Shown here in pieces: positions 16,093 to 38,148 of a stretch of DNA of 64,000 nt. The notes under the pieces are model-generated. The model ran no database searches and was not told the DNA's origin. It saw only the letters and a program-made list of their open reading frames with translations. The translations under genes were made by a program, and so were the position numbers. The stretch spans positions 30,096 through 94,095 of the IMG/VR virus record IMGVR_UViG_3300043466_001817; one strand, 5' to 3'. This DNA comes from a virus. Every line of letters begins with the position of its first letter. The first letter of the stretch is position 1.

Positions 16093-16276
16093 TACTTACC
16101 AACCGTAATGGTGATCTTTTGAGCAATTGTAATCGCAAAGAGCATCATAGTGATTGCACAGGTAACCATCGTAGCAACAAATGCCACATCTCCAAAAAGT
16201 CTGAGAATCTTGGTGTTGGTATCAGAATCGGTCTTGGTGTTATTCTTTTTCGTAGCCATGTTGTTTTCCTTTTGTA

Positions 16277-16468: not shown

Positions 16469-16469
16469 A

Positions 16470-16742: not shown

Positions 16743-16771
16743 AGTATATCTCCAGTTAGAGGTTAGTCAAG

Positions 16772-17256: not shown

Positions 17257-17313
17257 GCCCAGAGTATAGCACGGGGATTGGGAGAGTCAAGAGAACTCGC
17301 CATAAATAGTTTC

Positions 17314-17667: not shown

Positions 17668-17675
17668 ATAATGGT

Positions 17676-19769: not shown

Positions 19770-19770
19770 T

Positions 19771-20283
19771 ATGAAAAATTTTAAACAATTTATCATCGAA
19801 GCCAACGAACTGGCAAGAATCGAACACAAAAAATCGCCAGCTCACCACTCACACCCAATGGGTCAATTTTTGCAATTCATGCGTGATGAACTTCCAAACA
19901 TTCAAGTGGATGATTCTGTAGCGCATGGAATGTACAAGAAAGAATTGGATTCTTATCTTGATACATTGATGGGAGAAGATCCAAAACATTTTGATAATCT
20001 TCACAAGGAACTCACCACCGACGAAGAAGATGGAAGCACCAGAAGAAGAGATTTGTTTGATGTTCTTCTCCATGTTACTGGAGAGGCAAAGGAAAGAGCA
20101 TATAAAAAACTTGTTCAAGTACACAACCCAAGAGCATGGGAGACTCATCTTGATGATTTAAACGATGTCAGAGAAAGAGTCAAGAACCACATTGACGAGA
20201 AGGCTTCGGCAATGATAAAGTCAAGAACAAAAGATAATCCAAAATTCAGTCATATCGAATCTACAACCGATATAGAAATTTGA
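19771..20283 (+). CDS. Putative internal head protein
   Basis: MKNFKQFIIE, like the T4 IP capsid-targeting sequence. Confidence 0.6.
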   Translation: MKNFKQFIIEANELARIEHKKSPAHHSHPMGQFLQFMRDELPNIQVDDSVAHGMYKKELDSYLDTLMGEDPKHFDNLHKELTTDEEDGSTRRRDLFDVLLHVTGEAKERAYKKLVQVHNPRAWETHLDDLNDVRERVKNHIDEKASAMIKSRTKDNPKFSHIESTTDIEI

Positions 20284-21633: not shown

Positions 21634-21649
21634 ACGGATAAATAACTTT

Positions 21650-22093
21650 ATGAACTACCTAACAAATTATTACAAAAATTTATGCGAACAACTAGAAATG
21701 CAACTTGCCCTATTGGAAGCCAAAGTAAAGGATTCCAAGAAGAAGAGCAAGGGCAAGAAACTTGACCCAGTAGGCAAGGAAGATGGTGACATCGACAATG
21801 ATGGTGATGAGGATGAAACTGATGGATACCTAGCCAACCGTCGTAAGGCAATCGGTAAGGCAATGAAAAATAAAAAGAAAGTTGTCAAGGAAGAAACTTC
21901 AACAGGAGTAGAGGGAGACTACGAAGGGGAGATGTCAAAAGGGGAACTCCAATACACAATTCAAAATGCCCAAGAAATTTTAGATCAACTCAAGGATGAT
22001 GATGAACTAGAAGCATGGGTACAGAGCAAGATTACAAAGGCTTCTGACTATATTTCTACAGTAAAAGATTATATGGCTGGTAGGAATAAGTAA
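21650..22093 (+). CDS. Late protein with conserved T4-like modules
   Basis: LDPVGKEDGDIDNDGDEDETDGYLANRRKAI and LEAWVQSKITKASDY; MNYLTNYYKNL N-terminus. Confidence 0.65.
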   Translation: MNYLTNYYKNLCEQLEMQLALLEAKVKDSKKKSKGKKLDPVGKEDGDIDNDGDEDETDGYLANRRKAIGKAMKNKKKVVKEETSTGVEGDYEGEMSKGELQYTIQNAQEILDQLKDDDELEAWVQSKITKASDYISTVKDYMAGRNK

Positions 22094-22099: not shown

Positions 22100-22930
22100 A
22101 ATACGAGGGATAGAGTAAGGAAGATTGGGTAAAAAATATTGAAGAATTTTAAGAAAATTTGGAGTTAGACCCACACTCTCTAACACCCTTTAAACCTCTT
22201 ATAAGCCATCCAGAGCCCGTCCAGCGCACAAAAGGCCCCCGGAGTCATGTCCGAGGGCCTTGTCTCTAATAGCCTTATAGGCGGTCAAGCAATTACTATC
22301 AAGATTTTGACAAATTTTAGAGAATTTTTGACAATATTAGCACAACCCTGTCCAGAGTTCTCCATACCGTCCGCCATATGAGCAATGTAAGGGTTCTTAT
22401 CGACAATATCTTTAATTATTTTGACACTTGGGCTACATGCCGTCCGAGCACCGTCCAGATAACGTCCAGGGCCCGTACCGTCCGAGAATATATTAAAATT
22501 TTTGAGAATATTATAACCTACCTACCTAGGGGCCCTACACCCTGATAGTAGATAAAAAAATTTTAGATTCTTCCAGATCCCGTCCCGCTGGATCCCGTCC
22601 ACAAATTTTCAATAATTCTTGGAACGTCTGATATCTGAACAATTCCCAGACCCACCAGCGCACCGATAACCGTGGCGCTCACGAGTCCGATAACCCCCAC
22701 AGTTCTCCAGAGAACAGCCCAGACGAGTCCGATAACCCCCCATGCCCCATAACTAGATCTACGGTACACACTAGGGCGATAGGGGGTTATCGGTCGCATG
22801 AACAGTCCCCTAGTATACACCACAGGACCCATAAGTCAAGTAATGGCAAGGACTTACGATCCAGTGAAGACGTCCAGTTCTCTGGAGAAATGAATTAAAT
22901 TTAATACCGTCCAGCCCGTCCCGTCCGCGA
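22100..22930. repeat. Non-coding left border of the GC island with short-motif repeats
   Basis: Many CCGTCC/GTCCAG; ACGAGTCCGATAACCCCC twice; CCGATAACC three times plus one inverted; orphan CCTGATAGTAG at 22541. Confidence 0.7.
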
Positions 22931-22995
22931 CTACTATCAGGGAGCGCAAATATTATGCAAAAAATCAAAGTTCCTCTGAGGAACTTTGATAGTAG
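22931..22995. repeat. CTACTATCAGG-palindrome element, copy 1
   Basis: ATCAAAGTTCCTC-T-GAGGAACTTTGAT then AGTAG. Confidence 0.9.
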
Positions 22996-23071
22996 CCGGT
23001 ATGTATACAATAGAACAACCCCCGGGCCTGGCTCTCTCCTTCCAGTCCGGGGGCGTTCCTACGGGGATTAC

Positions 23072-25174
23072 TTACTTGCAGGGCAAGCTGTAGATGGCTT
23101 CCGTCCCCCGCTTGAGGGGCTGGCCCGCCACGATGTCCACATACCGGGAGAGGAACACGCGGCTACCGCTGCGCTTCGCCATCGTCTTGACGAAGGTGTT
23201 CTTGACCTTCGTGAAGGTTCCGCTGTCCACGATGGCATCCTCGTCCTTGACGATCTTCGGGGTCTTGACGAGGAAGTACGCATCGTACCCGTGGAAGATC
23301 TCGTCGTGGACAACGATGCAGCCGTCCTTGTACGCCTCCTTCGCAGCAGCGAACCGGGGAGAGGCGGCGAGGTTCTGATACGAACCCCTCTCCTTCGCGG
23401 CCACGCAGTACTGGTAGAAGAACGATTCGGTCAGGGCGTTGGGGCCAACCATCATCCCGACGAGGCGGGCGTTGAACTTCTCACGCAGGGAGTGCAGCAT
23501 GATGCCGACGATCTCGTTGCCCAAGCACGAAGTCATCTCGCGGGAAGGCATCCGGGTGATCGTTCCCGTGATGTTGTTCTGCACCGTCAGCACCCCGTCC
23601 TGACCGACGCTGTACATGGAGTAGATATCGTCGCCCTTCGCGCCACGGATGCCGATGCCGTTGGGCGAACCGTCCGTGATGTGCATGAGCGTGGGGATCT
23701 GAATGTTGTTGGCCTTGATCCACTCCGCGACGAACTGGGACGCGATGGCGACGGCCTCCACCGTGGGCGTACCGCCCAACCGGATCGCAGCGGGCCGCTT
23801 GTTCTGAACGATGGACTCGTAGAGGTAGGCCATGACCTTCTCGCGCTTGTCCGCACCGTCCCGCGACGAGGCAATGTTGATGAGGCGGGCCTCGTTGAGC
23901 GTGAGGGTGTTCATCTGCTGTCCGACGATCTTCGGCTCAAACATCCTGCTGAAGTCGCTGTAGTACTTCGTGGGGTTCTTCTTGCGCCACTCATCGAACT
24001 TGCCGCCGTGGAACGCGGCCTGATTCACTTCGGTGTAGCCGAACACCTCAAAGGGGATCTTCGCCTTCTCGCAGAACCAAACCAACTGGCAGACCTGAAG
24101 GAAGCAGTCCGACAGAGAGTGCTGCATCGACCCGCTGAAGTCCATGAGGAACACGATGCCGTGGTTCTTGCCGTCCTGCTTGACGATCTTGGAAAGGAAG
24201 ATATCGTCGTGGGTGCGGTACTGGTGGAGGCGGTCAAGGTTCAACTGGCCCGTCTGCTTGGGCCGCTCCTTGCGGATCGCGTCCGCTGCCTTGCGGCGCT
24301 CAAACTGCATGACGAGCTGCCGAACGAACGAATCGGAGTCCTTGACGAACTGGCGGTAGCCGGTCAGATCGACCTGCGGGTACGAGGTCTGCTTCTCAAA
24401 CTCGTCAAAGATGTAATCCGTGGGGACGATGGCAGCGTTGACATCCTCCAACATGGGGATGACAACCGTGGGCGAGTGAACCTTCGGGCCGGACTTCTTG
24501 CCGTGGCCCGCGATGTCAGTCTCCACGATCCCGTCCTGCATGGCTTCGGTGCCGATCGCGTCGGCCTGACCCTGCTGCTGCTCTGCCTTCTCGCGGGCAG
24601 CCTGCATCTGCGGCGACTGGTAGATGATCTTGGCGAGGGCGATGCACTCCTCGAAAGTCTCGCAACCATCGACCGCATCCACGATGGCCTGCTCGTTCTC
24701 GTCCATCGGAACGGTGACGAAACCGGGAACGCCCCACTTGAAGTGGATGTTCACCTTGTTGACGATGTTCGCGTCGGTCAAGTCCATCTTGGCGATGCCG
24801 AACATATCCAAGTCGTTGATCTCCTTGTAGCCCAAGAAGAAGTCGCGGCGGGTGCCGGGGAACTTGTCCTTCATCTTCTTCTCAATGCGGACATCCTCAA
24901 TGACATTGGCGATGCGCTGAAGCAACTCGATGTTGAACCCCTCCGCTTCGGCCTGATCGAACAGCACCTTCGACTGCTCGTAGGGAGTCCACAGGGCGTG
25001 GCTGATCTCATGGGCGACGAGCATGGTCTGCACCGTTTCGGAAACCTTCCAGACGGGCATGACGAGGTGGCGGTTCTCAACATCGAACGACGCGGTGGCG
25101 GCGTTGGCATCGAAGGAGAACGAAATGTTTTCGGAGGCGAGGGCGCGAGCGAAGATGGAGAGAGAAGTGTTCAT
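23072..25174 (-). CDS. CobT-like protein: HExxH peptidase-like N-domain plus vWA domain
   Basis: AHEISHALWT, NVIEDVRIE, MIDAS DFSGSM, GGTP, ITDG; leaderless TTGCAT...TACAAT-N6-ATG. Confidence 0.85.
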   Translation of the reverse strand: MNTSLSIFARALASENISFSFDANAATASFDVENRHLVMPVWKVSETVQTMLVAHEISHALWTPYEQSKVLFDQAEAEGFNIELLQRIANVIEDVRIEKKMKDKFPGTRRDFFLGYKEINDLDMFGIAKMDLTDANIVNKVNIHFKWGVPGFVTVPMDENEQAIVDAVDGCETFEECIALAKIIYQSPQMQAAREKAEQQQGQADAIGTEAMQDGIVETDIAGHGKKSGPKVHSPTVVIPMLEDVNAAIVPTDYIFDEFEKQTSYPQVDLTGYRQFVKDSDSFVRQLVMQFERRKAADAIRKERPKQTGQLNLDRLHQYRTHDDIFLSKIVKQDGKNHGIVFLMDFSGSMQHSLSDCFLQVCQLVWFCEKAKIPFEVFGYTEVNQAAFHGGKFDEWRKKNPTKYYSDFSRMFEPKIVGQQMNTLTLNEARLINIASSRDGADKREKVMAYLYESIVQNKRPAAIRLGGTPTVEAVAIASQFVAEWIKANNIQIPTLMHITDGSPNGIGIRGAKGDDIYSMYSVGQDGVLTVQNNITGTITRMPSREMTSCLGNEIVGIMLHSLREKFNARLVGMMVGPNALTESFFYQYCVAAKERGSYQNLAASPRFAAAKEAYKDGCIVVHDEIFHGYDAYFLVKTPKIVKDEDAIVDSGTFTKVKNTFVKTMAKRSGSRVFLSRYVDIVAGQPLKRGTEAIYSLPCK

Positions 25175-25270
25175 GCGCTCATTGTAGCAGGTCTGTAGGT
25201 GAATGCAACTACTAGGATCGGAAAATGGCAATTCTTTTTTGCGTCCGATAAGGGACCGGCCCCGTCCAGG

Positions 25271-25339
25271 CTACTATCAGGCCGTCAAGCAAATAACACA
25301 AAATTCTCAAAGATTCCTCAGAGGAATCTTTGATAGTAG
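25271..25339. repeat. CTACTATCAGG-palindrome element, copy 2
   Basis: TCAAAGATTCCTC-A-GAGGAATCTTTGA then TAGTAG. Confidence 0.9.
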
Positions 25340-25399
25340 CCCCTGCCTGGAAGATCCCCTGCCCCTTTCGGAGCAGGGGATCTTGTCCTCTGAACAGCA

Positions 25400-25621
25400 T
25401 CAGACCGTGGCCGGTGCGATCAGGGAGGTCAGGTCGTAGACCCCCTTGCTGACCGCGCTCTTGTGATCCTTCAGCACCCAAGTGGGGATGCCCTTCATGT
25501 TGATCGCCTGGGCGACGGCCAGCAGGTCGGCCTTGCTGAAGCTGTCGGTGGGGCGGTTGTGAACCTCCGCGTAGTGCTTGGCGGCGGCGACGAAACGGTT
25601 GCGCTTATTGAGGTACGGCAT
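25400..25621 (-). CDS. Small protein paralogous to the N-terminal domain of the adjacent CobS-like ORF
   Basis: SFSKADLL...IPTWVLKD....SKGVYDL versus SFTRDECL...LPAWLVTD....GRGLYSI; AGGAG RBS. Confidence 0.65.
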   Translation of the reverse strand: MPYLNKRNRFVAAAKHYAEVHNRPTDSFSKADLLAVAQAINMKGIPTWVLKDHKSAVSKGVYDLTSLIAPATV

Positions 25622-25639
25622 TGTCAGAATCTCCTTGTG

Positions 25640-26902
25640 TTAGGCGTTGAGAGCGTAGGAAGTGTCAGTCGGGGCAGCGACAGGCTGCGCCTTCTTGTCC
25701 GCACCCTCCGGCATCGGCAGGATGGTGGGGTCGATCTTGGTGTAGAGGTCGAAGAAAGCCTTCTGCGTGGCGGGGTCGAACCGCGTCAGCGTCAACTTGA
25801 TCGCCTTCTCCTTGTCCGCGAAGATGGCGAACGCCTTGCAGACCTCCTCCAAGCGGCGGGTCGTGATGATGTCATCCAAGCCGCCCTCCTTGAAGCCCAA
25901 GCGGATCGTTTCCGCCCACTTGGTGAGGTACTGGGCGAACTCCTTGTCCTCGCGCCCGTAAGCCTTCATCTTGCGGATGATGATGCGGGCCTCCACGGTG
26001 CGATCCGCGTAGTCCTGCTCAAACCAGTACGAGAAGCGGTCGAGGAAAGCCTCGTTCATCACTCGCGTCCCGACGAAGCGGTCGGACTCGCCCTTGCCCT
26101 TCGTGTTGGCGGTGGCGACGGCGTTGAAGCCGACAGACGGGCGGACATACTGCCCGATCTTCTTGAGGTAGATGCCCTTGCCCTCAAGGACGGGCTGGAG
26201 GCACATCATCCGCTCCGAACCCAAGTCGATCTCGTCCAACAGCAGGATGGCACCCTTCTGCATGGCCTGAACGACGGGGCCGTAGACGAACTTGGTTTCG
26301 CCGTTGACGAGGCGGAAGCCGCCCAACAGATCGTCCTCGTCGGTTTCGGAGGTGATGTTGACGCGGACGCACTCGCGGGCGTTGGCCGCGCAGATCTGCT
26401 CAATCATCGTGGTCTTGCCGTTGCCCGACAGACCCGTGATGTAGATGGGCGCGAACTGCTTGGAGGCGAGGATGGTGGCGATGGTGTCGTAGTGGCCCCA
26501 CGGAACGAAGGTGTCGTTCTTGGAGGGAACGAGCGAGACATCGGACATGGGGAGGACGAGGTTGAAGTTGTTGGTGTTGCTGTTCATGGGCGTAATCTTA
26601 TCACAAGTTTCGGTCGGAGTCAAGTCCACGGAAGGAAGATTCTCAACAATCTTTTGGGGAAATTCGAGGTTCAGGCGGGCACCGGCCACTTCGACTTCGG
26701 GGATGCTGTACAGGCCGCGACCCAGGCGACGAGCCTGATCAGTCACGAGCCAAGCGGGCAGGCACGAGTACGAGACCCGGTGCGTCTGCTTGCAGAGGTT
26801 GAGTGCGGTCAGGCACTCGTCACGGGTGAAAGAGGTGCGAAGCCCGAACGACAGGGCGAGGGATTCGAGGAAGTGCTGCTTACGAAGATCGATGCTGTTC
26901 AT
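25640..26902 (-). CDS. cobS: CobS/MoxR-family AAA+ ATPase (alternative in-frame start at 26587)
   Basis: Walker A GLSGNGKT, Walker B LLLDEID, ATANTKGKG, NEAFLDRF. Confidence 0.9.
   Translation of the reverse strand: MNSIDLRKQHFLESLALSFGLRTSFTRDECLTALNLCKQTHRVSYSCLPAWLVTDQARRLGRGLYSIPEVEVAGARLNLEFPQKIVENLPSVDLTPTETCDKITPMNSNTNNFNLVLPMSDVSLVPSKNDTFVPWGHYDTIATILASKQFAPIYITGLSGNGKTTMIEQICAANARECVRVNITSETDEDDLLGGFRLVNGETKFVYGPVVQAMQKGAILLLDEIDLGSERMMCLQPVLEGKGIYLKKIGQYVRPSVGFNAVATANTKGKGESDRFVGTRVMNEAFLDRFSYWFEQDYADRTVEARIIIRKMKAYGREDKEFAQYLTKWAETIRLGFKEGGLDDIITTRRLEEVCKAFAIFADKEKAIKLTLTRFDPATQKAFFDLYTKIDPTILPMPEGADKKAQPVAAPTDTSYALNA
26595..26623 (-). promoter_or_regulatory. Internal sigma70 promoter for a short leaderless CobS
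   Basis: TTGACT-N17-TAAGAT-N7-ATG(26587). Confidence 0.7.
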
Positions 26903-27015
26903 GAGAACATTGTAATCTATGAGGCGAAGATTGCAAGACCAATCTTCCATTATTCTCAAGATTGTCTCCAGGTCCGATAACCGGCCCCAGAGTCTGGTGC
27001 TGTCCGTTCTGTCCA

Positions 27016-27083
27016 CTACTATCAGGGAAATAATATAATATCTCGGAAAAAATCAAAGACCGCCTGGCGGTCTTTGATAGTAG
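27016..27083. repeat. CTACTATCAGG-palindrome element, copy 3
   Basis: ATCAAAGACCGCC-T-GGCGGTCTTTGAT then AGTAG. Confidence 0.9.
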
Positions 27084-27087
27084 TGGC

Positions 27088-27119
27088 AAATAAAAACCCC
27101 CAGCCTAGCAACTGGGGGT
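27088..27119 (-). terminator. Rho-independent terminator
   Basis: ACCCCCAG..CTGGGGGT followed by a T-rich run on the minus strand. Confidence 0.75.
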
Positions 27120-27158
27120 CGGAGGAACATCCTCCTTGAAGAAAGAAACGAACCTGAA

Positions 27159-27503
27159 TCAGCCCTTCAGGTACTCCGAAGCCGGGCCACTCTTGCAGCA
27201 GCCGGTACCATCGTTGTAGTAGGACTTCTTGCAGTCCTTGTTCTCGTTGTGGCACTTCTCCCACAGAACATCAACCTCGCGGTGCAGTTGCTCACGGGAG
27301 CCTTCCATCTCGCGCTTGAGTTCCGCAATCTTCTCGTTGCAGGAACGACCGCAGGCAAGCACCTCGTCAATTACATACCGCTCGCTGGCCTCCGTGTAGG
27401 TACGGATGCTGCGAATCTTGTTGTCGATGTAGTTCTTGACGATCAGGCCGCAAGCAAGCACACCGAAGGCGACGGCAAAGATCAAAGCGTAGTTCTCGTT
27501 CAT
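27159..27503 (-). CDS. Membrane-anchored coiled-coil protein
   Basis: N-terminal hydrophobic helix; TTGACA/TATAAT promoter and AGGAG. Confidence 0.65.
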   Translation of the reverse strand: MNENYALIFAVAFGVLACGLIVKNYIDNKIRSIRTYTEASERYVIDEVLACGRSCNEKIAELKREMEGSREQLHREVDVLWEKCHNENKDCKKSYYNDGTGCCKSGPASEYLKG

Positions 27504-27562
27504 CTGAATCTCCTTGTTGTTGGTGGTATTATACCACCTGGTTGTGGGTTGTCAAGTCTGAA

Positions 27563-27646
27563 TAGGACGGGTGAGATTCGAACTCACGGTGCATAAAGCG
27601 GGCAATTATAAGTCGCCTGCTGCTCTCCATCGCAGCACGCCGTCCT
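27563..27646 (-). tRNA. Atypical tRNA-Ile(UAU) with extended variable region
   Basis: GGCGA-CTTATAA-TTGCC; acceptor AGGACGG/CCGTCCT; T-arm GTGAG-TTCGAAT-CTCAC. Confidence 0.72.
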
Positions 27647-27793
27647 GTGTGAAGCCTTTTTACGGATGCTCCTTTGTCCGTGCATTCGCAGAATGCCTCT
27701 GTGCGGTTTTATGACTACCGCCAAAACTTATAATATAATCTGCATTGTGTTTCTCAATAGTGCATTGTAGCACCTCTTTGTTCTGTGTCAAGG

Positions 27794-27867
27794 CGTTTCC
27801 GGGGGGACTCGAACCCTCAACCTGCCGCTTAGAAGGCGGCTGCTCTATCCGGTTGAGCTACGGAAAC
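27794..27867 (-). tRNA. tRNA-Arg(UCU)
   Basis: GCCGC-CTTCTAA-GCGGC. Confidence 0.93.
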
Positions 27868-27960
27868 ATTCGGAAGGAGTACTCTACGGTCTAGGGAATC
27901 CCATTTTCCGACTTTTCGTCCTTCCTTATTGGATGAACTTGAAGAAGTCCATCTCGTTAG

Positions 27961-28045
27961 TGGGATTGGTGGGACTTGAACCCACAAGACTTTTGAGGTC
28001 GGCAGATTTTGAGTCTGCTGCGTATGCCGATTCCGCCACAATCCC
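27961..28045 (-). tRNA. tRNA-Leu(CAA)
   Basis: GCAGA-CTCAAAA-TCTGC, long variable arm; own TTGACA-N17-TATAAT promoter. Confidence 0.93.
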
Positions 28046-28060
28046 GATGCGCCCATTATA

Positions 28061-28336
28061 TCACACTATGGGCGGGTTGTCAACCCTATCTTCTAGGGAG
28101 AATTTTTCTTCAATTTCCTCGAAGAATTCCGAATTGGCTCGGACCACCTGCTCATGGAGCCGGTCAACGTTGAGGCATTGGGCTGCGTTGTCCACCTCAT
28201 CGAAGTACTGATTGATCAGTTCCTTCGGCGGGTTGCCGTTGCCATGGAGAATGTGTTCCATGATGCGGTCTGCGACAATGACCACGCGGTCATAAGCCTG
28301 GAGCGAGCTGATGTAGTGCTGTTCTGAAATCTTCAT
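28061..28336 (-). CDS. Hypothetical protein
   Basis: AGGAGG RBS after tRNA-Lys. Confidence 0.6.
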   Translation of the reverse strand: MKISEQHYISSLQAYDRVVIVADRIMEHILHGNGNPPKELINQYFDEVDNAAQCLNVDRLHEQVVRANSEFFEEIEEKFSLEDRVDNPPIV

Positions 28337-28350
28337 AGTGTCCTCCTGAA

Positions 28351-28423
28351 TGCCTCCGGTGGGGTTCGAACCCACGACCAATAGATTAAAAGTCTACTGC
28401 GCTACCAACTGCGCTACAGAGGC
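28351..28423 (-). tRNA. tRNA-Lys(UUU)
   Basis: TAGA-CTTTTAA-TCTA; own TTGACT-N17-TATAAT promoter. Confidence 0.93.
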
Positions 28424-28462
28424 GAGATGCCCATTATATCCGATGGGCGCGGTGAAGTCAAG

Positions 28463-28858
28463 TCAGTCCTTGTCGTTGTTTCCCAGTTCCTCTTCGATGT
28501 CGTTGATGTACTCCCGCCGGTCGTGGGGGAAGTGCTTGCGCTCCAACTCGCCCGCGAACTCGTCGTAGGTCATGGACATCATGTCGCCCAAGAGCATCAT
28601 GAACGCCGCGTCACCTGCCGTGACATCCTTCGGACGCTCGTTGCGCTCCTTCGCATCCGCGAGTTCCTGGGTCGCGTAGGCCATCGCAGCGGAGGCGACG
28701 AGGCGGAGCTTCTGATCCTTGAAGAAGGTCGGGTTCCGCATCACCAGTTCCACGAGGCTGTAGATCACCTCGTGGATGCTGGGCTTGAACTGCTCCATCA
28801 TGGGGTGCGGCTCGTTGTTGTCGAAGAAGTTGCTGAAGTTGTTCGTCGGGTCAGGCAT
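28463..28858 (-). CDS. Hypothetical early protein
   Basis: GC3-biased ORF. Confidence 0.65.
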   Translation of the reverse strand: MPDPTNNFSNFFDNNEPHPMMEQFKPSIHEVIYSLVELVMRNPTFFKDQKLRLVASAAMAYATQELADAKERNERPKDVTAGDAAFMMLLGDMMSMTYDEFAGELERKHFPHDRREYINDIEEELGNNDKD

Positions 28859-29081
28859 TGTTGGCTTCCTTGATCTGTGCGTGAAGGTTGAGGATGAACT
28901 CGTACTCGTCGTCGGTGGTCATGTCGGGGTCGGCCATCTTGGTCAGCATCACATACGCTGACCCCATTCGCATCACCTTCTCCGGGTCGGTGTCCCAGTC
29001 CGGGTTAGCGAAGATGAAGTCGGAGATGCTGTTCAGCAGGTCGCTGACATTGCAGGTGGTGGGCTTCTTGGGCTTGTTCAT
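28851..29081 (-). CDS. Hypothetical early protein, leaderless
   Basis: TTGACA-N17-TACAAT-N6-ATG. Confidence 0.65.
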   Translation of the reverse strand: MNKPKKPTTCNVSDLLNSISDFIFANPDWDTDPEKVMRMGSAYVMLTKMADPDMTTDDEYEFILNLHAQIKEANNA

Positions 29082-29099
29082 GGTGGTATTGTACCGAAG

Positions 29100-29429
29100 T
29101 CAGAGGGGGCTGTCAAGCAGGGAATAGTCGATATTCGAAACAGAAACCTCGAGGCCCCAATGCTCCAAAGTTTTCTTCATATCGTCCACGAAAGTCAACT
29201 GGAGCATCGGGTCGCAGTCGAAGTTGAGACAGGCGGTGATCATGCAGAACTCGTTCGCAATGTCGAACTGGAAGGTGGGGTTCTGTCCACGGGTCACGGC
29301 GTACCTATCGTCCGCAAAGTTCCATGCATGAAGGTAAGCGTTCGACATCTCCTTGAGGCGCATGGTAGCCCAAGACCGGCTCCGTGCCGTCTTGTGCATA
29401 ACGACGGTGATGTTGCTGTAGAGTGCCAT
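29100..29429 (-). CDS. Hypothetical early protein
   Basis: Coupled (TGATG) to upstream gene. Confidence 0.6.
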   Translation of the reverse strand: MALYSNITVVMHKTARSRSWATMRLKEMSNAYLHAWNFADDRYAVTRGQNPTFQFDIANEFCMITACLNFDCDPMLQLTFVDDMKKTLEHWGLEVSVSNIDYSLLDSPL

Positions 29430-29665
29430 CAGTCGAAGTCCTCGTCATCCACGAAGTCAGATGCGTCGAAGTCGCTCATCTCCGGGATGTCATCGTCGTG
29501 TTCGGTGTAGTCATCGTCCGCGTCGTAGAGGCCGATCATGCGGCGAGCCTCCGCTTCGCTGTAGCCTTCGGCCATCAACTCTTCGATGGCCTCCTCGTCG
29601 GTCATCTCCTCAATGGCGTGGTCGTACTGATCGTCGGTGTTGTCGAAGTCGTTGTCAATGTCCAT
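29429..29665 (-). CDS. Extremely acidic small protein, leaderless
   Basis: TTGCAT-N16-TATACT-N6-ATG; D/E-dominated. Confidence 0.7.
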   Translation of the reverse strand: MDIDNDFDNTDDQYDHAIEEMTDEEAIEELMAEGYSEAEARRMIGLYDADDDYTEHDDDIPEMSDFDASDFVDDEDFD

Positions 29666-29759
29666 GCGCGCAGTATAGCCTATACCGGCGGGGATGCAAG
29701 CGGTAGCATCCAAGAAAACGAAATATATTTTGCGTCCCATAACGTCCAGGTGGTCCGGG

Positions 29760-29822
29760 CTACTATCAGGCGGCGGCCGGTCCTATAAGAAATCAAAAAT
29801 GCCTGGGCATTTTTGATAGTAG
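29760..29822. repeat. CTACTATCAGG-palindrome element, copy 4
   Basis: ATCAAAAATGCC-TG-GGCATTTTTGAT then AGTAG. Confidence 0.9.
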
Positions 29823-29963
29823 TCAAATAAAATGCCCCACCTTGAAGAAGGTGGGGCGTGGGAGCTACCGTCCAAACTCCCGCGTTTCTCCGCACAGCGC
29901 TGTACGGATCTTTTTTATGCCGCTTGTGGCCACACAGGGCATCCGGTTTTGATGGTTTGGGCG

Positions 29964-30197
29964 TTAGTCCTTGAACTCGCATCCCGTCACGACATAGCGA
30001 AGTCCGCCAAGCGTGAAGGTCAGGGTGAACGCGCAGAAGTACATCACGCCAGCGCAGAAGAGTCCGACTGCGTTGAGCAGCCACGAAATGTCGTTGGGGG
30101 CGAGGAATGCGTAGGTAAAGATCATCGGGAGGAACCACGCCGCAATCAGGACGAGGGCACCGATGAAACGGTCGATGTAGGAGGTGGTGAGGTTCAT
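29964..30197 (-). CDS. Small two-helix membrane protein, leaderless
   Basis: TTGACA-N17-TACAAT-N6-ATG; two hydrophobic segments. Confidence 0.65.
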   Translation of the reverse strand: MNLTTSYIDRFIGALVLIAAWFLPMIFTYAFLAPNDISWLLNAVGLFCAGVMYFCAFTLTFTLGGLRYVVTGCEFKD

Positions 30198-30228
30198 GGG
30201 AGTATTGTACCTGGGTTGCAGGCGAATG

Positions 30229-30528
30229 TCAAGCCCAGTTCAGCATCTTCTCCGTCTTGGGCGAGAATCCCATGATCCCGGTGATCTTGTCCTCACCGAT
30301 CAGGATCCAGTCCTTCTTGGTGATGTCGAAGGCGCAGATGTAGCCTTCGGTGGTGTGACGGAGGCCCTTCGGCAGATTGCCGCCGAGGTGACGGATGAAG
30401 GTCGCGTCCGTAGTGACCTCACGGGCAGCGGGAGTGCCGTCCTTCTTCGTGAAAGTGACCATCACGGTGTCGTTGTTGGAGAGCGAAACGCGGAGGACGG
30501 TAGCGAGAGGCAGGTCGGTGGTGTTCAT
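30229..30528 (-). CDS. SH3/WYL-like beta-barrel protein (DUF2693-like), leaderless
   Basis: VTFTKKDGT.A.R..T...AFDITKKDW. Confidence 0.6.
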   Translation of the reverse strand: MNTTDLPLATVLRVSLSNNDTVMVTFTKKDGTPAAREVTTDATFIRHLGGNLPKGLRHTTEGYICAFDITKKDWILIGEDKITGIMGFSPKTEKMLNWA

Positions 30529-30638
30529 GTGAGTATTGTAGCCGGTTGGGGGTGAAAGTCAAGAGGGAAAGAAAGATTTTTTGGTGGTTTCGGGAGGGGG
30601 CGGTAACTCAACCCCCTCCCATCATGCACCACCATGAT

Positions 30639-31040
30639 TTACTGGATCAGGTCCTGCGCGGTGGGGACGCCCTGCTTCTCGAACTTCTCCGCTTCGGCCT
30701 GGAGGATCTCGAAGAACAACTTCGGGCACTTCATCTGCAAGGCGGTGATGTTCTCACCGTTGTCCCCCGCGAGGATCGCGTCCCCGACGAGCGGCTGCTT
30801 GCAGATGATGGAGGCGCGGGTGTTGAAGCGCGGGTTGTCGATGCACAGACCCTCCTCATCGATCCACATCATCGAATCCTCGATGTGGTTCAGCGGGACG
30901 CTGATCGGCTGCACGAGGCGGCACGACATGATCGGGTACATCGACTCCAACGGGTTGTCGGCGTTCAGTTCCACGACGCGGACGGGCTGGTTGATGTCGG
31001 CGGGGATCAGGATGGCGGGGATGGTGGTGATGTTCGACAC
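30639..31040 (-). CDS. DUF3846-like protein
   Basis: LIPAD...MWIDEEGL...FNTRAS...LVGDAILAG; GTG start with AGGAG. Confidence 0.65.
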   Translation of the reverse strand: MSNITTIPAILIPADINQPVRVVELNADNPLESMYPIMSCRLVQPISVPLNHIEDSMMWIDEEGLCIDNPRFNTRASIICKQPLVGDAILAGDNGENITALQMKCPKLFFEILQAEAEKFEKQGVPTAQDLIQ

Positions 31041-31187
31041 GGTGGTGACTCCTGCCCCTGTGGGGCAACTGGGTGATACGCGAATTGTAGCAGGTTGGCT
31101 GGCGATTGCAAGTAGGTAGGTCGCGATTCGAAAGATTTATTTCTTTCCTCGTACCGGCCACAGGGCTCGAGCCCGTCCAGGTGGGCG

Positions 31188-31245
31188 CTACTATCAGGCG
31201 GCGTCCAATAAAATCAGAGGGCCCTAGAGGGCCCTCTGATAGTAG
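31188..31245. repeat. CTACTATCAGG-palindrome element, copy 5
   Basis: ATCAGAGGGCCCT-AG-AGGGCCCTCTGAT then AGTAG. Confidence 0.9.
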
Positions 31246-31396
31246 CCCGAGGGGCTGGCTCAAACTTCTCGAGCCAGTTCCCTCTTTCCCTCCCTCCGCG
31301 CCATCCGAGGGTCGCGGCTCTTCTTGCCCCAAGTCTTGGGGCGGAGCCGGATGCCTTCACGGAAAGCGTCGTGGACGAACTTGCCTGGGCGGTGCT

Positions 31397-31642
31397 TCAT
31401 CGTGTCTCCTCTAGGTCGATCAGGGCGGAATCAATCTTGATCTGAAGGCGGCGAATCGTGTCGCGCTCCGCCTTCGCTTCAGCGTAGAACGCATCATGAG
31501 CTGCGGTTTCCCGGTAGGTGTTCATTTCACGCAGCACATCCACCATAGCGGTGAACATGAAACGGGAAATAATTTCCATTTCGCGCTTCGACAATTCCAC
31601 CTGCATGGCGGGCTTGCGAATTGGCTTGAGGGTGGTGATCAT
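31397..31642 (-). CDS. Hypothetical early protein, leaderless
   Basis: TTGACA-N17-TAAGAT-N6-ATG. Confidence 0.65.
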   Translation of the reverse strand: MITTLKPIRKPAMQVELSKREMEIISRFMFTAMVDVLREMNTYRETAAHDAFYAEAKAERDTIRRLQIKIDSALIDLEETR

Positions 31643-31691
31643 GGTGGTATCTTACCTTCCTGTCCTGTCCCTGTCAATAGGGTAGGGCGGA

Positions 31692-32312
31692 TTACTCCGC
31701 CTTTCCCCTGATGATGATCCACAGAAGCGCCTGCATGTCGGCGGCGGGCATGTTCCACGAATCGGCCATGAGCCGAACGGCAGCGGCGATGGCACGGTAC
31801 TCAACGGCGCTGGGCGCATCCTTCGGCTGGCCAGCGTACTTCGACTTCGGCCCGTAGGTGAGGCCGGCAGCGCGGCACATCCAAATGTCGATCACGACCG
31901 CATCGGGGTCGCCGCCGATGGCACGGGCGAACGCGTTCGTCTTCGGCCCGCGCAGGCCGTCGAAGCCTTCGCGCTGGCAACGGTCCGCAGCGTCCAGCGC
32001 CGAACGCAGGCCCGCAGGGCGCTGGCCCATAGCGTACTCGGCGGCCTTGCGCTTGTTGAGCGCCCAAGTAACGCGGGGCGAGAATGCCGACACGACGCTA
32101 GCGGACACTTCGAGCGTCCACGACGGCGCGATGGTGCAGAGCGATTCCGCGAACGCGTTCGCGTCGCAGTACCATGTGCCCGCCCGCTTGATGTCGGCGG
32201 GCGTGGCCGACGCCAGCAGGGTACGGAAGCGGCCTTCGGCCTCAACGCGGACGGCGGACATGCGGGCGAGGGTAGCGGCGGACGGCTGACGGGTGGTGGT
32301 GGTGGTGATCAT
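31692..32312 (-). CDS. DUF7178-like protein (HhH glycosylase-like fold), leaderless
   Basis: GTWY..AN, SAFSPR..W..N, GPKTNAF, VVIDIWM, MQALLW. Confidence 0.6.
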   Translation of the reverse strand: MITTTTTRQPSAATLARMSAVRVEAEGRFRTLLASATPADIKRAGTWYCDANAFAESLCTIAPSWTLEVSASVVSAFSPRVTWALNKRKAAEYAMGQRPAGLRSALDAADRCQREGFDGLRGPKTNAFARAIGGDPDAVVIDIWMCRAAGLTYGPKSKYAGQPKDAPSAVEYRAIAAAVRLMADSWNMPAADMQALLWIIIRGKAE

Positions 32313-32422
32313 GCGGTAATTGTAACCGAATGGCTACAGAATGCAATAGGGTAGCCCGCTGAAACGCAAAGAATAATTATTCATCGCGGTGCATAGTTAT
32401 GCAGGGCGTCCAGGTCGTCCGG

Positions 32423-32475
32423 CTACTATCAGGCCGTCCAATAAAATCAAGATCGCCGGGCGATCTTGATAGTAG
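32423..32475. repeat. CTACTATCAGG-palindrome element, copy 6
   Basis: ATCAAGATCGCC-G-GGCGATCTTGAT then AGTAG. Confidence 0.9.
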
Positions 32476-32547
32476 CCCACAAACAACCTAGCCCCGAGCT
32501 AATCGGGGCAGGGACGAATCCTCTTCGGTTGTAAGAGCACCACCTCT

Positions 32548-32814
32548 TTAGTCTGTGGCCGGTGCGAGTGCCGCCTCCTGTCCGACGCGGATTCCTGCGC
32601 GGAATGCGTGGATCAGTTCCAGCAGTTCCCGCTTGCTGCGGTAGCCGGGGAAGATGGCGATGCAGGCTCCGTGGGGGCCGACGAGTTGCTGTAGTTGCCA
32701 TCCGCCGTATGCGCCCTGGAGGTAGTACGCACCTGGCGTGGCAGCGGTCGCCCCGACGAGTTGGTTCAGGACGCGGGTGGCGGCTTCAAGGTCGCGGATC
32801 GTGGTGTGCTTCAT
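32548..32814 (-). CDS. Conserved phage early protein
   Basis: TIRDLE...LN...YYLQGAYGGWQL...GYRSKREL. Confidence 0.6.
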   Translation of the reverse strand: MKHTTIRDLEAATRVLNQLVGATAATPGAYYLQGAYGGWQLQQLVGPHGACIAIFPGYRSKRELLELIHAFRAGIRVGQEAALAPATD

Positions 32815-32903
32815 AGTGTGAACCTTACTGTATCGGGGGGCGGGAATCAAGGGGGCAGGAAAGATTTTTTACTTTCTTTCCTGCCCCCCACCGGGGGCTT
32901 GGG

Positions 32904-33308
32904 TTAGATGGTCACGGAGCGGAGGGGGCGCGTCGGGGCGCGGTCGGCCTGCTTCGAGGCCGTGTCGCGTCCGTCGATCCAGTTAGCCGCAGCGAGGAGG
33001 CCGTAGGCGACGGCCCGCATCTCGTTCGCGGTGCAGGAGCAGCCCGCCCGCTCATCGAAGGCACCGAAGAGGTTGAACGACGCCATCCGGTGGTTGGGCG
33101 ACGAGAGGACGCGGACGGCGTAGGGGCCGACCGGGATCATGAACGCCGCAGCCGACTCGTGGTCGAAGCGGATGCGGGTGTAGTTGCTGCGGTTGCTGAT
33201 CGTGCAGTCGCTGATGCGGTTCTCGCGCTCGTTGCTGCGGAGGTTGTCAACGGAGCGCGACGGGCTGAACACGATGTCGGTGGCGCAGGAGAAGGTGGTG
33301 GTGGTCAT
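32904..33308 (-). CDS. Hypothetical early protein
   Basis: AGGAG-N8-ATG. Confidence 0.6.
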   Translation of the reverse strand: MTTTTFSCATDIVFSPSRSVDNLRSNERENRISDCTISNRSNYTRIRFDHESAAAFMIPVGPYAVRVLSSPNHRMASFNLFGAFDERAGCSCTANEMRAVAYGLLAAANWIDGRDTASKQADRAPTRPLRSVTI

Positions 33309-33340
33309 GGTAGATGCTCCTAGTGAGAGGGGTGCGATTG

Positions 33341-33532
33341 TCAAGCGGTAACGCAAGATTCTGCGCGAAACTTTGCCTTGCTCCAGCGCGGGTCGGCATC
33401 GTACCCGTTGGTGAGGAGCAGGTAGCGGAACTCCTCAATGGCCTGGGCCTTGGAGTCAGCGCGAACCGTGGTGGAGTGAATGATGCCGCCGAGGGTGCAG
33501 GTGACGCGGAAGAGTTGGGTGGTGCTGTTCAT
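33341..33532 (-). CDS. Small early protein, leaderless
   Basis: TTGACT-N16-TACCAT-N6-ATG. Confidence 0.6.
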   Translation of the reverse strand: MNSTTQLFRVTCTLGGIIHSTTVRADSKAQAIEEFRYLLLTNGYDADPRWSKAKFRAESCVTA

Positions 33533-33678
33533 GCGTGTATGGTAGCGAATCTACAATGGAAGTCAATACCCTTTCTCAAATATTTCTCGAGCGCCCCCAG
33601 GCGACCGATAACCTACCGGCAGAAATATTTGAGAAAGGGTATTGACTTCGATAGCAAACTTGCTACCATTAGCGCATG
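33530..33678. promoter_or_regulatory. Mirror-symmetric divergent promoter pair with a 29-bp perfect inverted repeat
   Basis: 33559-33587 is the reverse complement of 33621-33649; -10 boxes and ATGs are equidistant from the axis. Confidence 0.9.
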
Positions 33679-33894
33679 GACACCACCCACACCGATTCGC
33701 CCGACAACTTCCCCTGCCAGTGCCACCTGTCGAAGTACGCCTACGAGGACGCGCTCTGCCCCGAGTGCGAGGAGCGGGAGCGGCAGCTCGAAGCCCAGGT
33801 GGAGGCCGAAGCGCTGCGCGCCGAGGCCATGGAGGAGAGGGACTGGGACGCCGATAACGATTGGCTCGCCTCAGCGGGCTGGGGCGAGATGTGA
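33676..33894 (+). CDS. Small acidic protein with CxC..CxxC, leaderless
   Basis: TTGACT-N16-TACCAT-N6-ATG. Confidence 0.65.
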   Translation: MDTTHTDSPDNFPCQCHLSKYAYEDALCPECEERERQLEAQVEAEALRAEAMEERDWDADNDWLASAGWGEM

Positions 33895-33965
33895 GCCCCA
33901 AATAAATCTTCAAACTTCCACCGGCCACCCTTGACATGGGGTGGTCGGTGTGCTAATATGCGCGC

Positions 33966-34133
33966 ATGATCACCACCGACGGTAACGATGAAACCCCCCG
34001 CAAGTACACCGATGGCGAGTACCGGCTGCGGCCCGAGTACCAGGAGGAGCAACACAGCGCCTGTTGGGAGGACCGCTACGGGCCCGACTACGATGACTGC
34101 GACGAGGGCCCTGACTGGGAGGGCGATGACTGA
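33966..34133 (+). CDS. 55-aa acidic protein, leaderless (not in ORF track)
   Basis: TTGACA-N17-TAATAT-N6-ATG; MITTDGNDETPRKY...DWEGDD. Confidence 0.65.
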   Translation: MITTDGNDETPRKYTDGEYRLRPEYQEEQHSACWEDRYGPDYDDCDEGPDWEGDD

Positions 34134-34206
34134 GCCCAGGAAATAAATCGTCAAATTTCCACCGCTACCCCTTGCAACCGAGGGGGCGGTGTGCTATCAT
34201 ACGCGT

Positions 34207-34353
34207 ATGGAAAGCACCACCAACATCGAAGAAACCCCCCGCACCCCGATGGTCATCAATCTGGCCAAGCGCAACGCGAATCCCGATGAGGAGCGGGAAT
34301 TCGCGGAGGGACCGGATGAGGACACCTACTGGGACTGGTACTGGGGCCAGTAA
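34207..34353 (+). CDS. 48-aa acidic, Trp-rich protein, leaderless (not in ORF track)
   Basis: TTGCAA-N17-TATCAT-N6-ATG; MESTTNIEE...DTYWDWYWGQ. Confidence 0.65.
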   Translation: MESTTNIEETPRTPMVINLAKRNANPDEEREFAEGPDEDTYWDWYWGQ

Positions 34354-34363
34354 CCCCCCAGGC

Positions 34364-34401
34364 ACTCAGAGGCCCCCGCAAGGGGGCCTCTGAGTTTATT
34401 T
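34364..34401 (+). terminator. Rho-independent terminator
   Basis: ACTCAGAGGCCCCC-GCAA-GGGGGCCTCTGAGT then TTATTT. Confidence 0.85.
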
Positions 34402-34792
34402 GATAATCTTTCCAACCGGCCCTTGACAGCATGGGTCGGTTGTGCTATAGGCAGGGGGGGGGTAGGGGTGCCCAAGGAGTCTGACGGAAGTTGCAGCAAA
34501 GGTTCGTTTGGTGCAAGGGGGGTGGGGTCTCAGCGCCGTGTCCAAACAGTATTTTGGGTCCCCTTTGGGATTTGGAACGTTCGAGGGGCCAGCACCCACC
34601 CCCTCTAATATTCTTTAAATTTTCTCAAATATTTTCAAATATATTCAAAGTTCCTCAAATATTCTCAAAGTCATCTGTCCACTCAATTTAAAAACGACCC
34701 CCTACCTCTAAAAACCATGTATGGTCAAAAAAATTTTTGGGCGCAAAAAGGCTCTAAAAGGTTCACTATAAATATTCTTTTAAGGAGATATC

Positions 34793-35044: not shown

Positions 35045-35587
35045 TTATTTTTTCTTCTTTGATTCTTCTTCTCTTTTGATTGAACCAAGAACTCTATCCC
35101 ATACGAGTTCTTGTGCGTGGGGATGAATTTCTCCACTTGGCGTACCAAGATCAATTACATCTTCATTTCCCCAGTGTGGATTGCCTTTCTCCGGGTAGAT
35201 TACGGGTGGCATGAATTCGGGACCAATTTTTTCAATTGCATCCTTTACACTTGTAAATGGATTTTTTGTAAAATATTTATCAGTAGTCAATTTCTTGAAC
35301 ATGTCTTCTTTGGATTTTTTTTTGTCGTAACTGTGAGATCCAAGATTACGATCAACGTGAGGAGCAACGTCTGAGTGATGTCTTGCAATCAAATCTGAAA
35401 TTTGATTATGTAGTTGCATTGCTTGTTGCCCTGCTGCAACTTCTGCTGAACTACCAGTTTTATCGGCATCTGGACCGTCAAAATTATCTGGTGTTAGATT
35501 TGCGTTTTCAACCAATCTTTGGAGATGATTGACTCTTTGTTGTAGTTGTTCGGATAGATTCTTGTAGTAATTTGTTAAGTAGTTCAT
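35045..35587 (-). CDS. Late protein with MNYLTNYYKNL N-terminus
   Basis: TAAATA-N5-ATG; N-terminus shared with the 21650 gene. Confidence 0.6.
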   Translation of the reverse strand: MNYLTNYYKNLSEQLQQRVNHLQRLVENANLTPDNFDGPDADKTGSSAEVAAGQQAMQLHNQISDLIARHHSDVAPHVDRNLGSHSYDKKKSKEDMFKKLTTDKYFTKNPFTSVKDAIEKIGPEFMPPVIYPEKGNPHWGNEDVIDLGTPSGEIHPHAQELVWDRVLGSIKREEESKKKK

Positions 35588-35595
35588 AAATTTAT

Positions 35596-35799
35596 TTATT
35601 CCTGTTCTAATGTCTGTGCGTGTTCCATTTCAGATTTAACAGAAGACTTTGCTTGTCTTGAAATTTGTTCAGTCTTCTTTGTGTCTTTTGACACCGTTAC
35701 AGCATCTCTTCTGGCTTTTTTTTCTAAAAACTCCGGGTCGGATGTTGTTGATCCCTCTGGGACCACTTGTTCGCGTAAATAATCTTTAAAAGATTTCAT
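35596..35799 (-). CDS. Putative internal head protein
   Basis: MKSFKDYLRE. Confidence 0.55.
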   Translation of the reverse strand: MKSFKDYLREQVVPEGSTTSDPEFLEKKARRDAVTVSKDTKKTEQISRQAKSSVKSEMEHAQTLEQE

Positions 35800-38135: not shown

Positions 38136-38148
38136 AAAAAGTTCCAAA

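Follow-up and report, generated by a model that had tools for sequence, protein, structure and literature searches.

Why does the AT-rich genome of an uncultured T4-like virus carry one block of strongly GC-rich genes, and what keeps that block different from its surroundings? The locus that raises this question lies in IMG/VR record IMGVR_UViG_3300043466_001817, a single viral contig of 94,095 bp that is about 50% complete according to CheckV. The right two-thirds of this record (positions 30,096 to 94,095) form the window of 64,000 nucleotides analyzed here, and coordinates are those of the window unless another contig is named. The GC-rich block (positions 22,951–34,600, 11.6 kb) is referred to as the island and the remainder of the record as the backbone. 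Based on its composition, its conservation in relatives, its codon usage and its promoters, the island is probably a native early hyperplastic region, tuned to the tRNA pool of a GC-rich host.

Composition and lineage of the island

The GC content of the island is 58.2%, compared to 37.3% for the remainder of the 94-kb record. Windows of 1 kb within the island range from 0.50 to 0.63, with none below 0.50, and those off the island have a mean of 0.373 (standard deviation 0.047, maximum 0.505); nearly everywhere in the window outside approximately 22,950–34,600 the GC content is 30–45%. Codon-phase analysis places the signal at third positions: GC at the first, second and third codon positions (GC1, GC2 and GC3) is 0.56, 0.41 and 0.84 in island genes, and 0.46, 0.39 and 0.26 in backbone genes. 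Intergenic DNA of the island has 52% GC vs. 38% for backbone DNA free of open reading frames (ORFs), and the GC3 gap of 0.58 far exceeds this non-coding gap of 0.14. The sliding GC and GC3 values confirm the switch from AT-rich to GC-rich DNA with G or C at third positions that was reported in an initial annotation of the window, made from the letters of the sequence. The same annotation described the island as sharply bounded. This holds for the right border, where GC drops from 0.58 to 0.31 in about 200 bp at 34,600, but not for the left, which is a transition zone of 0.9 kb (22,100–23,000) with a GC content of 0.42–0.52. The record contains no second copy of any part of the island. Across the record and two relatives (G001 and G003), GC3 falls into three tiers, with the island at 0.84, core replication and capsid genes at 0.40–0.47, and other backbone genes at 0.16–0.35.

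Using the island gene cobS, 19 related loci (55–99% identity) were found in IMG/VR. A GC-rich block surrounds cobS in all of them, and AT-rich DNA lies beyond the block wherever the locus extends past it, with the exception of a single locus (L018, contig G010) that is GC-rich throughout. The relatives share the core gene order, and a quartet of tRNA genes (Lys-Leu-Arg-Ile) is located immediately upstream of cobS in 14 of the 15 relatives scanned; the locus of the fifteenth (L017) starts after the Lys position. A relative of 137 kb contains exactly one such block. The left border is spanned by one contig that is 98.7% identical at the nucleotide level (976-nt alignment; 99% for the CobS protein), and border elements (a promoter, a terminator and repeated motifs) are conserved in relatives across both junctions.

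Traits of a mobile element were not observed. Tyrosine (PF00589) and serine (PF00239) recombinases are absent from the whole record, and no integrase, recombinase or transposase was among the Pfam and PHROG matches of the island genes, in agreement with the initial annotation. No direct repeats were found at the island borders. The sole border repeat is a 57-bp inverted repeat (21,638–21,694 and 35,543–35,599, 89% identical), made up of the starts of two paralogs on either side of the island, the products of which both begin with MNYLTNYYKNL. It could permit inversion of the island. The same gene family flanks the island in most relatives too.

The lineage of the phage could be read from its core genes. 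The left 30 kb of the record encodes a family B polymerase (PF00136), UvsX (PF00154) and a gp41-type helicase (PF03796), as well as ThyX and a class II ribonucleotide reductase. A gene for the capsid protein gp23 (PF07068, E-value of approximately 1e-135) was identified in five related records and is not present on this record, which is about 50% complete; for one relative, the nearest gp23 sequences (54%) come from T4-like Synechococcus phages. Among cultured phages, the island cobS and its neighbor, a CobT-like “peptidase” gene, have their best matches, of about 49 and 28% identity, respectively, in T4-like cyanophages and in the Pelagibacter phages HTVC008M and Mosig. Island genes and capsid therefore have the same cyano- and pelagimyophage affinity. 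Adjacency of an AAA+ ATPase of the MoxR/dynein type and a large CobT-like protein is a trait of the CobS/CobT-like pair of marine T4-like phages and is seen in the island; in HTVC008M the two genes are likewise adjacent, but in reverse order and within the replication module. Megablast of the island plus 25 kb of backbone against cultured phages returned a tRNA match only.

Together, these sequence comparisons support the notion that the phage is a T4-like myovirus (of the Straboviridae/Kyanoviridae type) and that the island is native to its lineage, not an insertion or a chimera. An assembly chimera with two joins, or a recent insertion, is very unlikely because of the synteny, the conserved border elements, the presence of a single block, and the lack of direct repeats and recombinase genes. 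The initial annotation had likewise regarded the island as native, and the GC-rich block in 19 of 19 loci and the shared gene order are in line with that view.

The exceptional contig G010 (L157) was considered as a pointer to a GC-rich donor. It joins a cobS/tRNA-Ile module (positions 1–3,260), 96.5% identical to that of the T4-like relative L016, to a T7-like region (3,323–19,938). The T7-like part (16.6 kb, 63% GC) encodes an integrase, a single-subunit RNA polymerase, SSB, a primase-helicase, PolA and an exonuclease. In other samples, three T7-like contigs were found that match this part at about 98% DNA identity, and at 99% for the DNA polymerase protein. Their similarity to G010 ends precisely at the junction, and none of them has cobS. 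The junction is thus probably an assembly chimera and possibly a rare recombinant, and the donor was rejected as a candidate. A DNA methyltransferase common to the T4-like and T7-like phages was also rejected as a trace of exchange; at 53–62% amino-acid identity it gives no sign of recent transfer.

Codon usage and phage tRNAs

The codons of the island are close to the reverse of those of the backbone. The share of A-ending codons is 1% in the island vs. 66% in the backbone for Lys (AAA), 2 vs. 36% for Ile (ATA), 2 vs. 62% for Arg (AGA), 3 vs. 60% for Pro (CCA) and 8 vs. 81% for Gln (CAA). The ten tRNAs of the record read CCA, GGA, CAA, GAA, ATA, AGA, AAA, TTG, TAY and AAY, and the seven of these codons that end in A account for 3.2% of the codons in the island vs. 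23.2% in the backbone.

The bias of the island is not symmetric. At fourfold degenerate third positions it has 4% A, 13% T, 53% C and 30% G, compared to 42% A and 37% T in the backbone. A-ending codons are thus avoided about threefold more than T-ending ones, yet A exceeds T on the coding strand overall. The share of G-ending codons also differs between amino acids, being 99% for Lys, 92% for Gln and 73% for Glu. A-ending codons require tRNAs with U at position 34 (U34), whereas the G34 tRNAs that read C-ending codons also read T-ending ones. Since symmetric GC pressure would not predict the asymmetries between A and T and between Lys, Gln and Glu, they suggest that selection acts on decoding.

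To what extent the contrast is inherited passively was addressed at fourfold sites in conserved codons, comparing this phage with relatives at 50–75% protein identity. These sites are 47–64% identical between relatives, vs. 36–42% expected from composition alone. Nevertheless, the GC3 of cobS and the peptidase gene is 0.77–0.87 in most relatives and 0.60–0.65 in three. Because GC3 is still high at near-saturated sites, while a passive block would have drifted to the composition of the backbone, the contrast is maintained and probably not a relic. Of the three relatives with lower GC3 (L006, L015 and L017), the two scanned for tRNAs carry a tRNA-Leu(UAA) instead of CAA (L015, 9,161–9,234; L017, 625–709). 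The tRNA set may therefore vary together with the island, perhaps depending on the host.

A GC-rich host is suggested by the tRNAs of the phage and by the codons of the island, and there is precedent for this. T4-like cyanomyoviruses carry U34 tRNAs to translate their AT-rich genomes in GC-rich hosts (PMC3152331), pelagimyophages that infect AT-rich hosts have 0–2 tRNAs (PMC7029224), and codon usage differs between early and late genes in half of the phages studied (PMC5683454). The initial annotation had proposed both tuning to a GC-rich host and dependence of the later genes on phage tRNAs. The complementarity of codons and tRNAs fits this proposal. Neither psbA nor psbD was found in five records up to 76% complete, an absence that argues against a typical cyanomyovirus but proves nothing.

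Promoters, cassettes and genes

Sigma70-like promoter sites are strongly enriched in the island, with 27 sites vs. 5.8 ± 2.4 in shuffled sequences; two match the consensus at 12 of 12 positions and four at 11 of 12. Two stretches of the backbone, each as long as the island, gave counts close to chance. This corroborates the annotated set of about 20 small genes with near-consensus sigma70 promoters (we count approximately 19). The late-type sequence TATAAATA has no copy inside the island, as annotated; one is located beyond the right border (34,767, plus strand).

Many of the promoters have a fixed position relative to the start codon. The pattern TTGNNN, 16–18 nt, TANNNT, 6 nt, ATG occurs 12 times in the island vs. 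0.1 times in shuffled sequences, and up to 20 times per related locus. With two slightly off-pattern cases, at least 13 genes, including cobS and the peptidase gene, are predicted to be leaderless, as the sigma70-type −10 box lies exactly 6 nt ahead of the gene. Many of these genes start with ATGA(A/T)CACCACC, and the later genes of each cassette have ordinary Shine-Dalgarno sites.

The promoters are arranged around a divergent hub (33,521–33,687), which consists of 67-nt inverted arms (84% complementary) and a 33-nt core with a copy of CCGATAACC. Each arm reads TTGACT-16-TACCAT-6 nt-ATG, in mirror symmetry. The minus-strand arm is divided into cassettes by six elements that occur only in the island, each consisting of a box CTACTATCA, a variable hairpin with a T-run and a box TGATAGTAG. 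Another terminator-like hairpin lies ahead of each element, and a promoter lies behind it. All six are on the minus strand, at 22,931–22,995 (downstream of the peptidase gene), 25,271–25,339, 27,016–27,083, 29,760–29,822, 31,188–31,245 and 32,423–32,475. Repeated stem-loop terminators with an early sigma70-type promoter between genes, the hallmark of the PeSL (promoter-early stem-loop) units of T4-type phages, are thus present six times.

The borders, annotated as non-coding, contain several elements. The left border zone (22,100–22,950, 42–52% GC) has a promoter that is kept in relatives (22,812–22,839, minus strand) and a doubtful small hydrophobic ORF (22,563–22,800, minus strand). Ten plus-strand copies of CCGTCC(AG) are clustered at 22,200–22,930, and one more follows each TGATAGTAG box. 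Of the CCGATAACC copies, four are in this zone (22,663–22,793), one is in the core of the hub (33,605) and one is at 26,974. Both motifs may be factor-binding or termination signals. The right border (34,364–34,700, plus strand) comprises a terminator with a 14-bp stem that is conserved in relatives (34,364–34,395), a TTGACA promoter (about 34,424) with no ORF behind it and a G-rich, ORF-free stretch of 150 nt after it (together 34,421–34,600), and AT-rich DNA with a run of CTCAAATATT-like repeats. The idea that this orphan promoter drives a structured RNA was considered and rejected, as the fold had a z-score of −1.0 compared to shuffled sequences and no match in Rfam.

Strands and start positions had to be revised from the initial annotation. 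According to the codon-phase analysis, the real genes occupy the minus strand between 33,532 and 23,072, together with three small plus-strand genes at 33,676–34,353, and the long plus-strand ORFs over the minus-strand genes are shadows of real genes. Gene callers and binning tools may be misled here, as the longest ORFs of the island are on the wrong strand. The presence of cobS, a CobT-like gene and four tRNA genes was confirmed by Pfam, PHROG and tRNA calls.

The peptidase gene (23,072–25,174, minus strand; phrog_459, 2e-120) has a GC3 of 0.88, and its predicted leaderless start is an internal Met at 25,174, behind TTGCAT-17-TACAAT-6 nt. The cobS-like gene (25,640–26,902, minus strand; GC3 0.86) encodes an AAA+ (AAA_5) ATPase (PF07728, 8e-19; phrog_249, 2e-94), also with an internal Met (26,902) as its predicted leaderless start. 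Between the two lies a Shine-Dalgarno-led gene of 73 amino acids (25,400–25,621, minus strand) that is conserved in 18 of 19 relatives. Upstream of cobS, a 114-aa gene (27,159–27,503, minus strand) follows a promoter with a 12/12 consensus match (27,528–27,555) and occurs only in the closest relatives. The tRNA quartet region (27,563–28,423, minus strand) comprises tRNA-Ile-UAU (27,563–27,646), tRNA-Arg-UCU (27,792–27,867), tRNA-Leu-CAA (27,960–28,045) and tRNA-Lys-UUU (28,351–28,423), with a small gene in its midst (28,061–28,336, minus strand). Promoters matching the consensus at 12 and 11 of 12 positions abut the tRNA-Leu and tRNA-Lys genes.

The remaining genes are small and mostly without assigned function, and four of their products are very acidic. 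On the minus strand, four genes at 28,463–29,740 include one for an acidic protein (29,429–29,665), and the units starting from 29,081 and 29,665 are predicted to be leaderless. Three genes at 29,964–31,040 encode a membrane-like protein of 77 aa, a protein of 99 aa with a weak WYL_2/Sm-like match and a DUF3846 protein of 133 aa. A further three at 31,260–32,312 encode a 46-aa basic peptide, an 81-aa protein and a DUF7178 protein (31,692–32,312). The very basic 46-aa peptide (31,260–31,400, minus strand) is the product of the best conserved small gene of the island, with 73–93% identity in 10 relatives. The last three minus-strand genes are at 32,548–33,532, and the first of the arm (33,341–33,532) is predicted to be leaderless. 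On the plus strand, three monocistronic, predicted leaderless genes (33,676–34,353), each with a TG-extended sigma70-type promoter, encode very acidic proteins of 48–72 aa. The genes at 27,159–27,503, 29,100–29,429, 29,964–30,197 and 33,341–33,532 are missing from most relatives.

The structural model of the DUF7178 protein, which is conserved in 11 relatives, has a fold resembling HhH-GPD DNA glycosylases (predicted local distance difference test score, pLDDT, of 91). The top structural match is Thermotoga Ogg (Z 12.4, root-mean-square deviation 3.6 Å over 168 residues), and the top 22 matching chains all belong to the HhH-GPD superfamily, although a helical fold calls for caution. No match in the PDB was found at the sequence level. 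The residues Lys124 and Asp142, spaced 18 residues apart, are invariant and may resemble the catalytic pair of endonuclease III. The model suggests that the protein may be an early DNA glycosylase or lyase.

Several features elsewhere in the window were also considered. The stretch 13,000–17,700 (43–49% GC), which contains a DNA methyltransferase gene and tRNA-Glu, looks like a second, weaker early cluster. A permuted two-piece transfer-messenger RNA (tmRNA; RF04321, 64 bits) at 6,736–7,016 (minus strand) adjoins tRNA-Pro, and its 26-nt 3′ end (acceptor and T-arm) is identical to the tRNA-Ala(CGC) of many, mostly GC-rich Alphaproteobacteria. As a guide to the host this 26-mer was rejected as uninformative, since it matches tRNA-Ala(CGC) genes instead of tmRNA genes, and no match was found for the remainder of the tmRNA. 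A short homolog of the adenylosuccinate synthetase PurA (37,140–38,147, minus strand; 335 aa) is without about 70 internal residues. Its role as PurZ in a Z-genome was rejected, as PurA chains match with values to 3e-59 and PurZ with 1e-15 to 1e-10.

Explanations and known systems

How might such an island work? Upon infection, unmodified host RNA polymerase would read it from approximately 15–20 near-consensus sigma70-type promoters. Two arms would diverge from the mirror-symmetric hub, with the six box-hairpin-box connectors cutting the minus arm into cassettes, and most first genes are positioned for transcripts that would start at the AUG. The island would be coded in C- and G-ending codons that the tRNA pool of a GC-rich host can read, and the backbone in A- and T-ending codons, nearly a quarter of which would be read by the U34-type tRNAs of the phage. 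Four of these tRNA genes sit in the island behind its strongest promoters. The result would be a bootstrap, in which early proteins (among others the CobS/CobT-like pair, acidic microproteins and the glycosylase-like protein) and tRNAs precede efficient translation of AT-rich genes; the island genes could probably be translated by host tRNAs before phage tRNAs are available. The initial annotation proposed that the island is expressed first and acts in host takeover. This would fit its promoter type and the style of its genes, and a function in takeover is plausible in view of the acidic microproteins, the DUF3846 protein and the early glycosylase-like protein.

A more tentative extension is a translational programme built into the two codon dialects. 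The island would then use host tRNAs only and the backbone mainly phage tRNAs, translation of the early genes would cease once host tRNAs are depleted or cleaved, and the GC3 of the island would track the host. The observation that links GC3 to this programme is its value of 0.60–0.65 with tRNA-Leu(UAA) in some relatives and 0.77–0.87 with CAA in others.

What the sequences show is the composition, the geometry of the promoters, the match between codons and tRNAs, the conservation in relatives and the long-term maintenance. From the promoter geometry we infer early timing and leaderless transcripts, from the tRNAs and the codons of the island a GC-rich host, and in addition translational selection as the maintaining force. 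Several observations weigh against such an interpretation. Five more predicted leaderless units of the TTGAC(T/A) type lie off the island on the minus strand (at 6,640, 9,971, 15,345, 16,736 and 17,256) and have a GC3 of only 0.30–0.72. As these early units are outside the island and only intermediate in GC3, the island is not the whole early regulon, and with core replication and capsid genes at GC3 0.40–0.47 the rule that early genes are GC-rich is graded, not absolute. In addition, GC1, GC2 and the Lys/Arg ratio of the island cobS and peptidase genes are shifted relative to their HTVC008M orthologs and the intergenic DNA of the island is GC-richer than that of the backbone, which indicates some pressure at the nucleotide level besides codon choice. 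Finally, contig G010 (L018) is GC-rich throughout, which fits a chimera yet leaves room for a GC-rich source.

Pressure at the nucleotide level is the core of a rival explanation, which we consider rather improbable: selection or bias would act on the DNA or RNA itself, not on tRNA matching, by a host-like GC content that frees the first-transcribed region from AT-targeting xenogeneic silencers (of the H-NS, MvaT, Lsr2 or MucR type) or AU-targeting RNases, or by GC-biased gene conversion in cassettes prone to recombination. Counteraction of H-NS by AT-rich phages is established for T4 and T7. The shifted GC1, GC2 and Lys/Arg ratio in conserved orthologs and the intergenic GC contents of 52 and 38% favor this explanation, and the cassettes with their variable gene content indicate frequent recombination. 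However, most of the contrast is at third positions (0.58 vs. 0.14 for intergenic DNA), and a strand-symmetric force predicts neither the threefold stronger avoidance of A- than of T-ending codons (4 vs. 13%) nor the differences between Lys, Gln and Glu. An import from a GC-rich phage or host, as a compositional relic or a repeatedly re-imported module whose GC content has no function, is unlikely. Horizontal transfer is classically recognized by a jump in composition, the set of small genes differs among relatives, and G010 joins the cobS module to a 63%-GC T7-like phage with an integrase. Against this, locus, syntenic core and tRNA quartet of the island are the same in relatives in spite of near-saturated synonymous sites, where a relic would have ameliorated; the nearest cultured homologs of cobS and the peptidase gene are in AT-rich T4-like phages, matching the capsid; recombinase genes and direct repeats are lacking; and the G010 junction, absent from the three T7-like contigs of about 98% identity, is probably chimeric.

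The first-step-transfer DNA of T5 and the terminal redundancy of SPO1 contain small takeover genes with strong host-type promoters and are defined by their position at the end or by duplication. The initial annotation drew an analogy to both, and the likeness holds at the functional level, as the island shares dense strong host-type promoters and small takeover-style genes; the contig of one relative (G003) also breaks inside its island. Structurally the analogy finds no support. The island is internal and single-copy in the 94-kb record and in the 137-kb relative, and its lineage has T4-type capsid and replication genes. T4-type phages use headful packaging with permuted ends, so that no fixed end enters first. 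That the island is first-entering or terminally redundant DNA is thus highly improbable. A chimeric assembly of two phages, one AT-rich and one GC-rich, we regard as barely conceivable. The record derives from a metagenome, both borders are intergenic and a related contig (G010) looks chimeric, but two joins would be needed, relatives from many samples whose loci span the block have AT-rich DNA on both sides of it, and border elements conserved across the junctions and the 98.7%-identical contig spanning the left border speak for continuity.

If the island is a native early region tuned to the host's tRNA pool, its interest extends beyond this phage. Phage tRNAs and codon differences between early and late genes usually give weak statistical signals that are difficult to interpret, and here a whole lineage retains two near-opposite regimes in one genome, sharply separated and with the tRNA genes placed in the block adapted to the host. 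This provides a natural test case for whether codon usage and virus tRNAs time gene expression, and for how an AT-rich virus starts in a GC-rich cell. It also bears on whether composition jumps in viral contigs mean transfer or chimerism, and yields about 20 promoter-defined early genes that can be screened for takeover or anti-defence functions. Full-text searches of the literature gave no account, for T4-like phages, of a GC-rich island or of early genes that are leaderless, an absence that is no proof of novelty.

The island is comparable to several known systems. The PeSL cassettes of T4 hyperplastic regions (Arbiol 2010, PMC2839356; Comeau 2014, PMC4122927) are terminator/early-promoter composites between small, variable genes driven by host polymerase, and gene content differs among relatives at these units. 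The island has composites of this kind, and the differences in its gene content may likewise lie at them. In contrast to the PeSL units as far as described in the parts of this literature available to us, the island has an invariant pair of inverted 9-bp boxes that brackets the hairpin, promoters set for leaderless mRNAs, and a GC3 of 0.84 next to a backbone at 0.26. Like the T4-like cyanomyoviruses (Limor-Waisberg 2011, PMC3152331), this phage combines an AT-rich genome with U34-type tRNAs that favor its own A-ending codons, for which a role in growth on GC-rich hosts has been proposed; their low GC content is genome-wide, whereas the island is a conserved block in the opposite dialect with the tRNA genes embedded in it. 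Temporal gene classes that differ in synonymous codons, partly tied to the tRNA pool and GC content of the host, have been reported for other phages (Mioduser 2017, PMC5683454). Those are statistical shifts, while the island is near a mirror image of its backbone (AAA 1 vs. 66%), in one block that is kept over saturated divergence. In the leading regions of conjugative plasmids, the first-expressed genes are likewise better matched to host codons, presumably for speed (Shaw et al., preprint, 10.1101/2025.04.03.647016), but plasmid DNA enters in order, and ordered entry is not expected for a headful-packaged T4-like phage. Our results partly support the interpretation of the initial annotation; the island probably joins a T4 early hyperplastic region with PeSL-type cassettes to tRNA-compensated codon usage, and adds to these the bracketing boxes, the leaderless geometry and the deviant composition.

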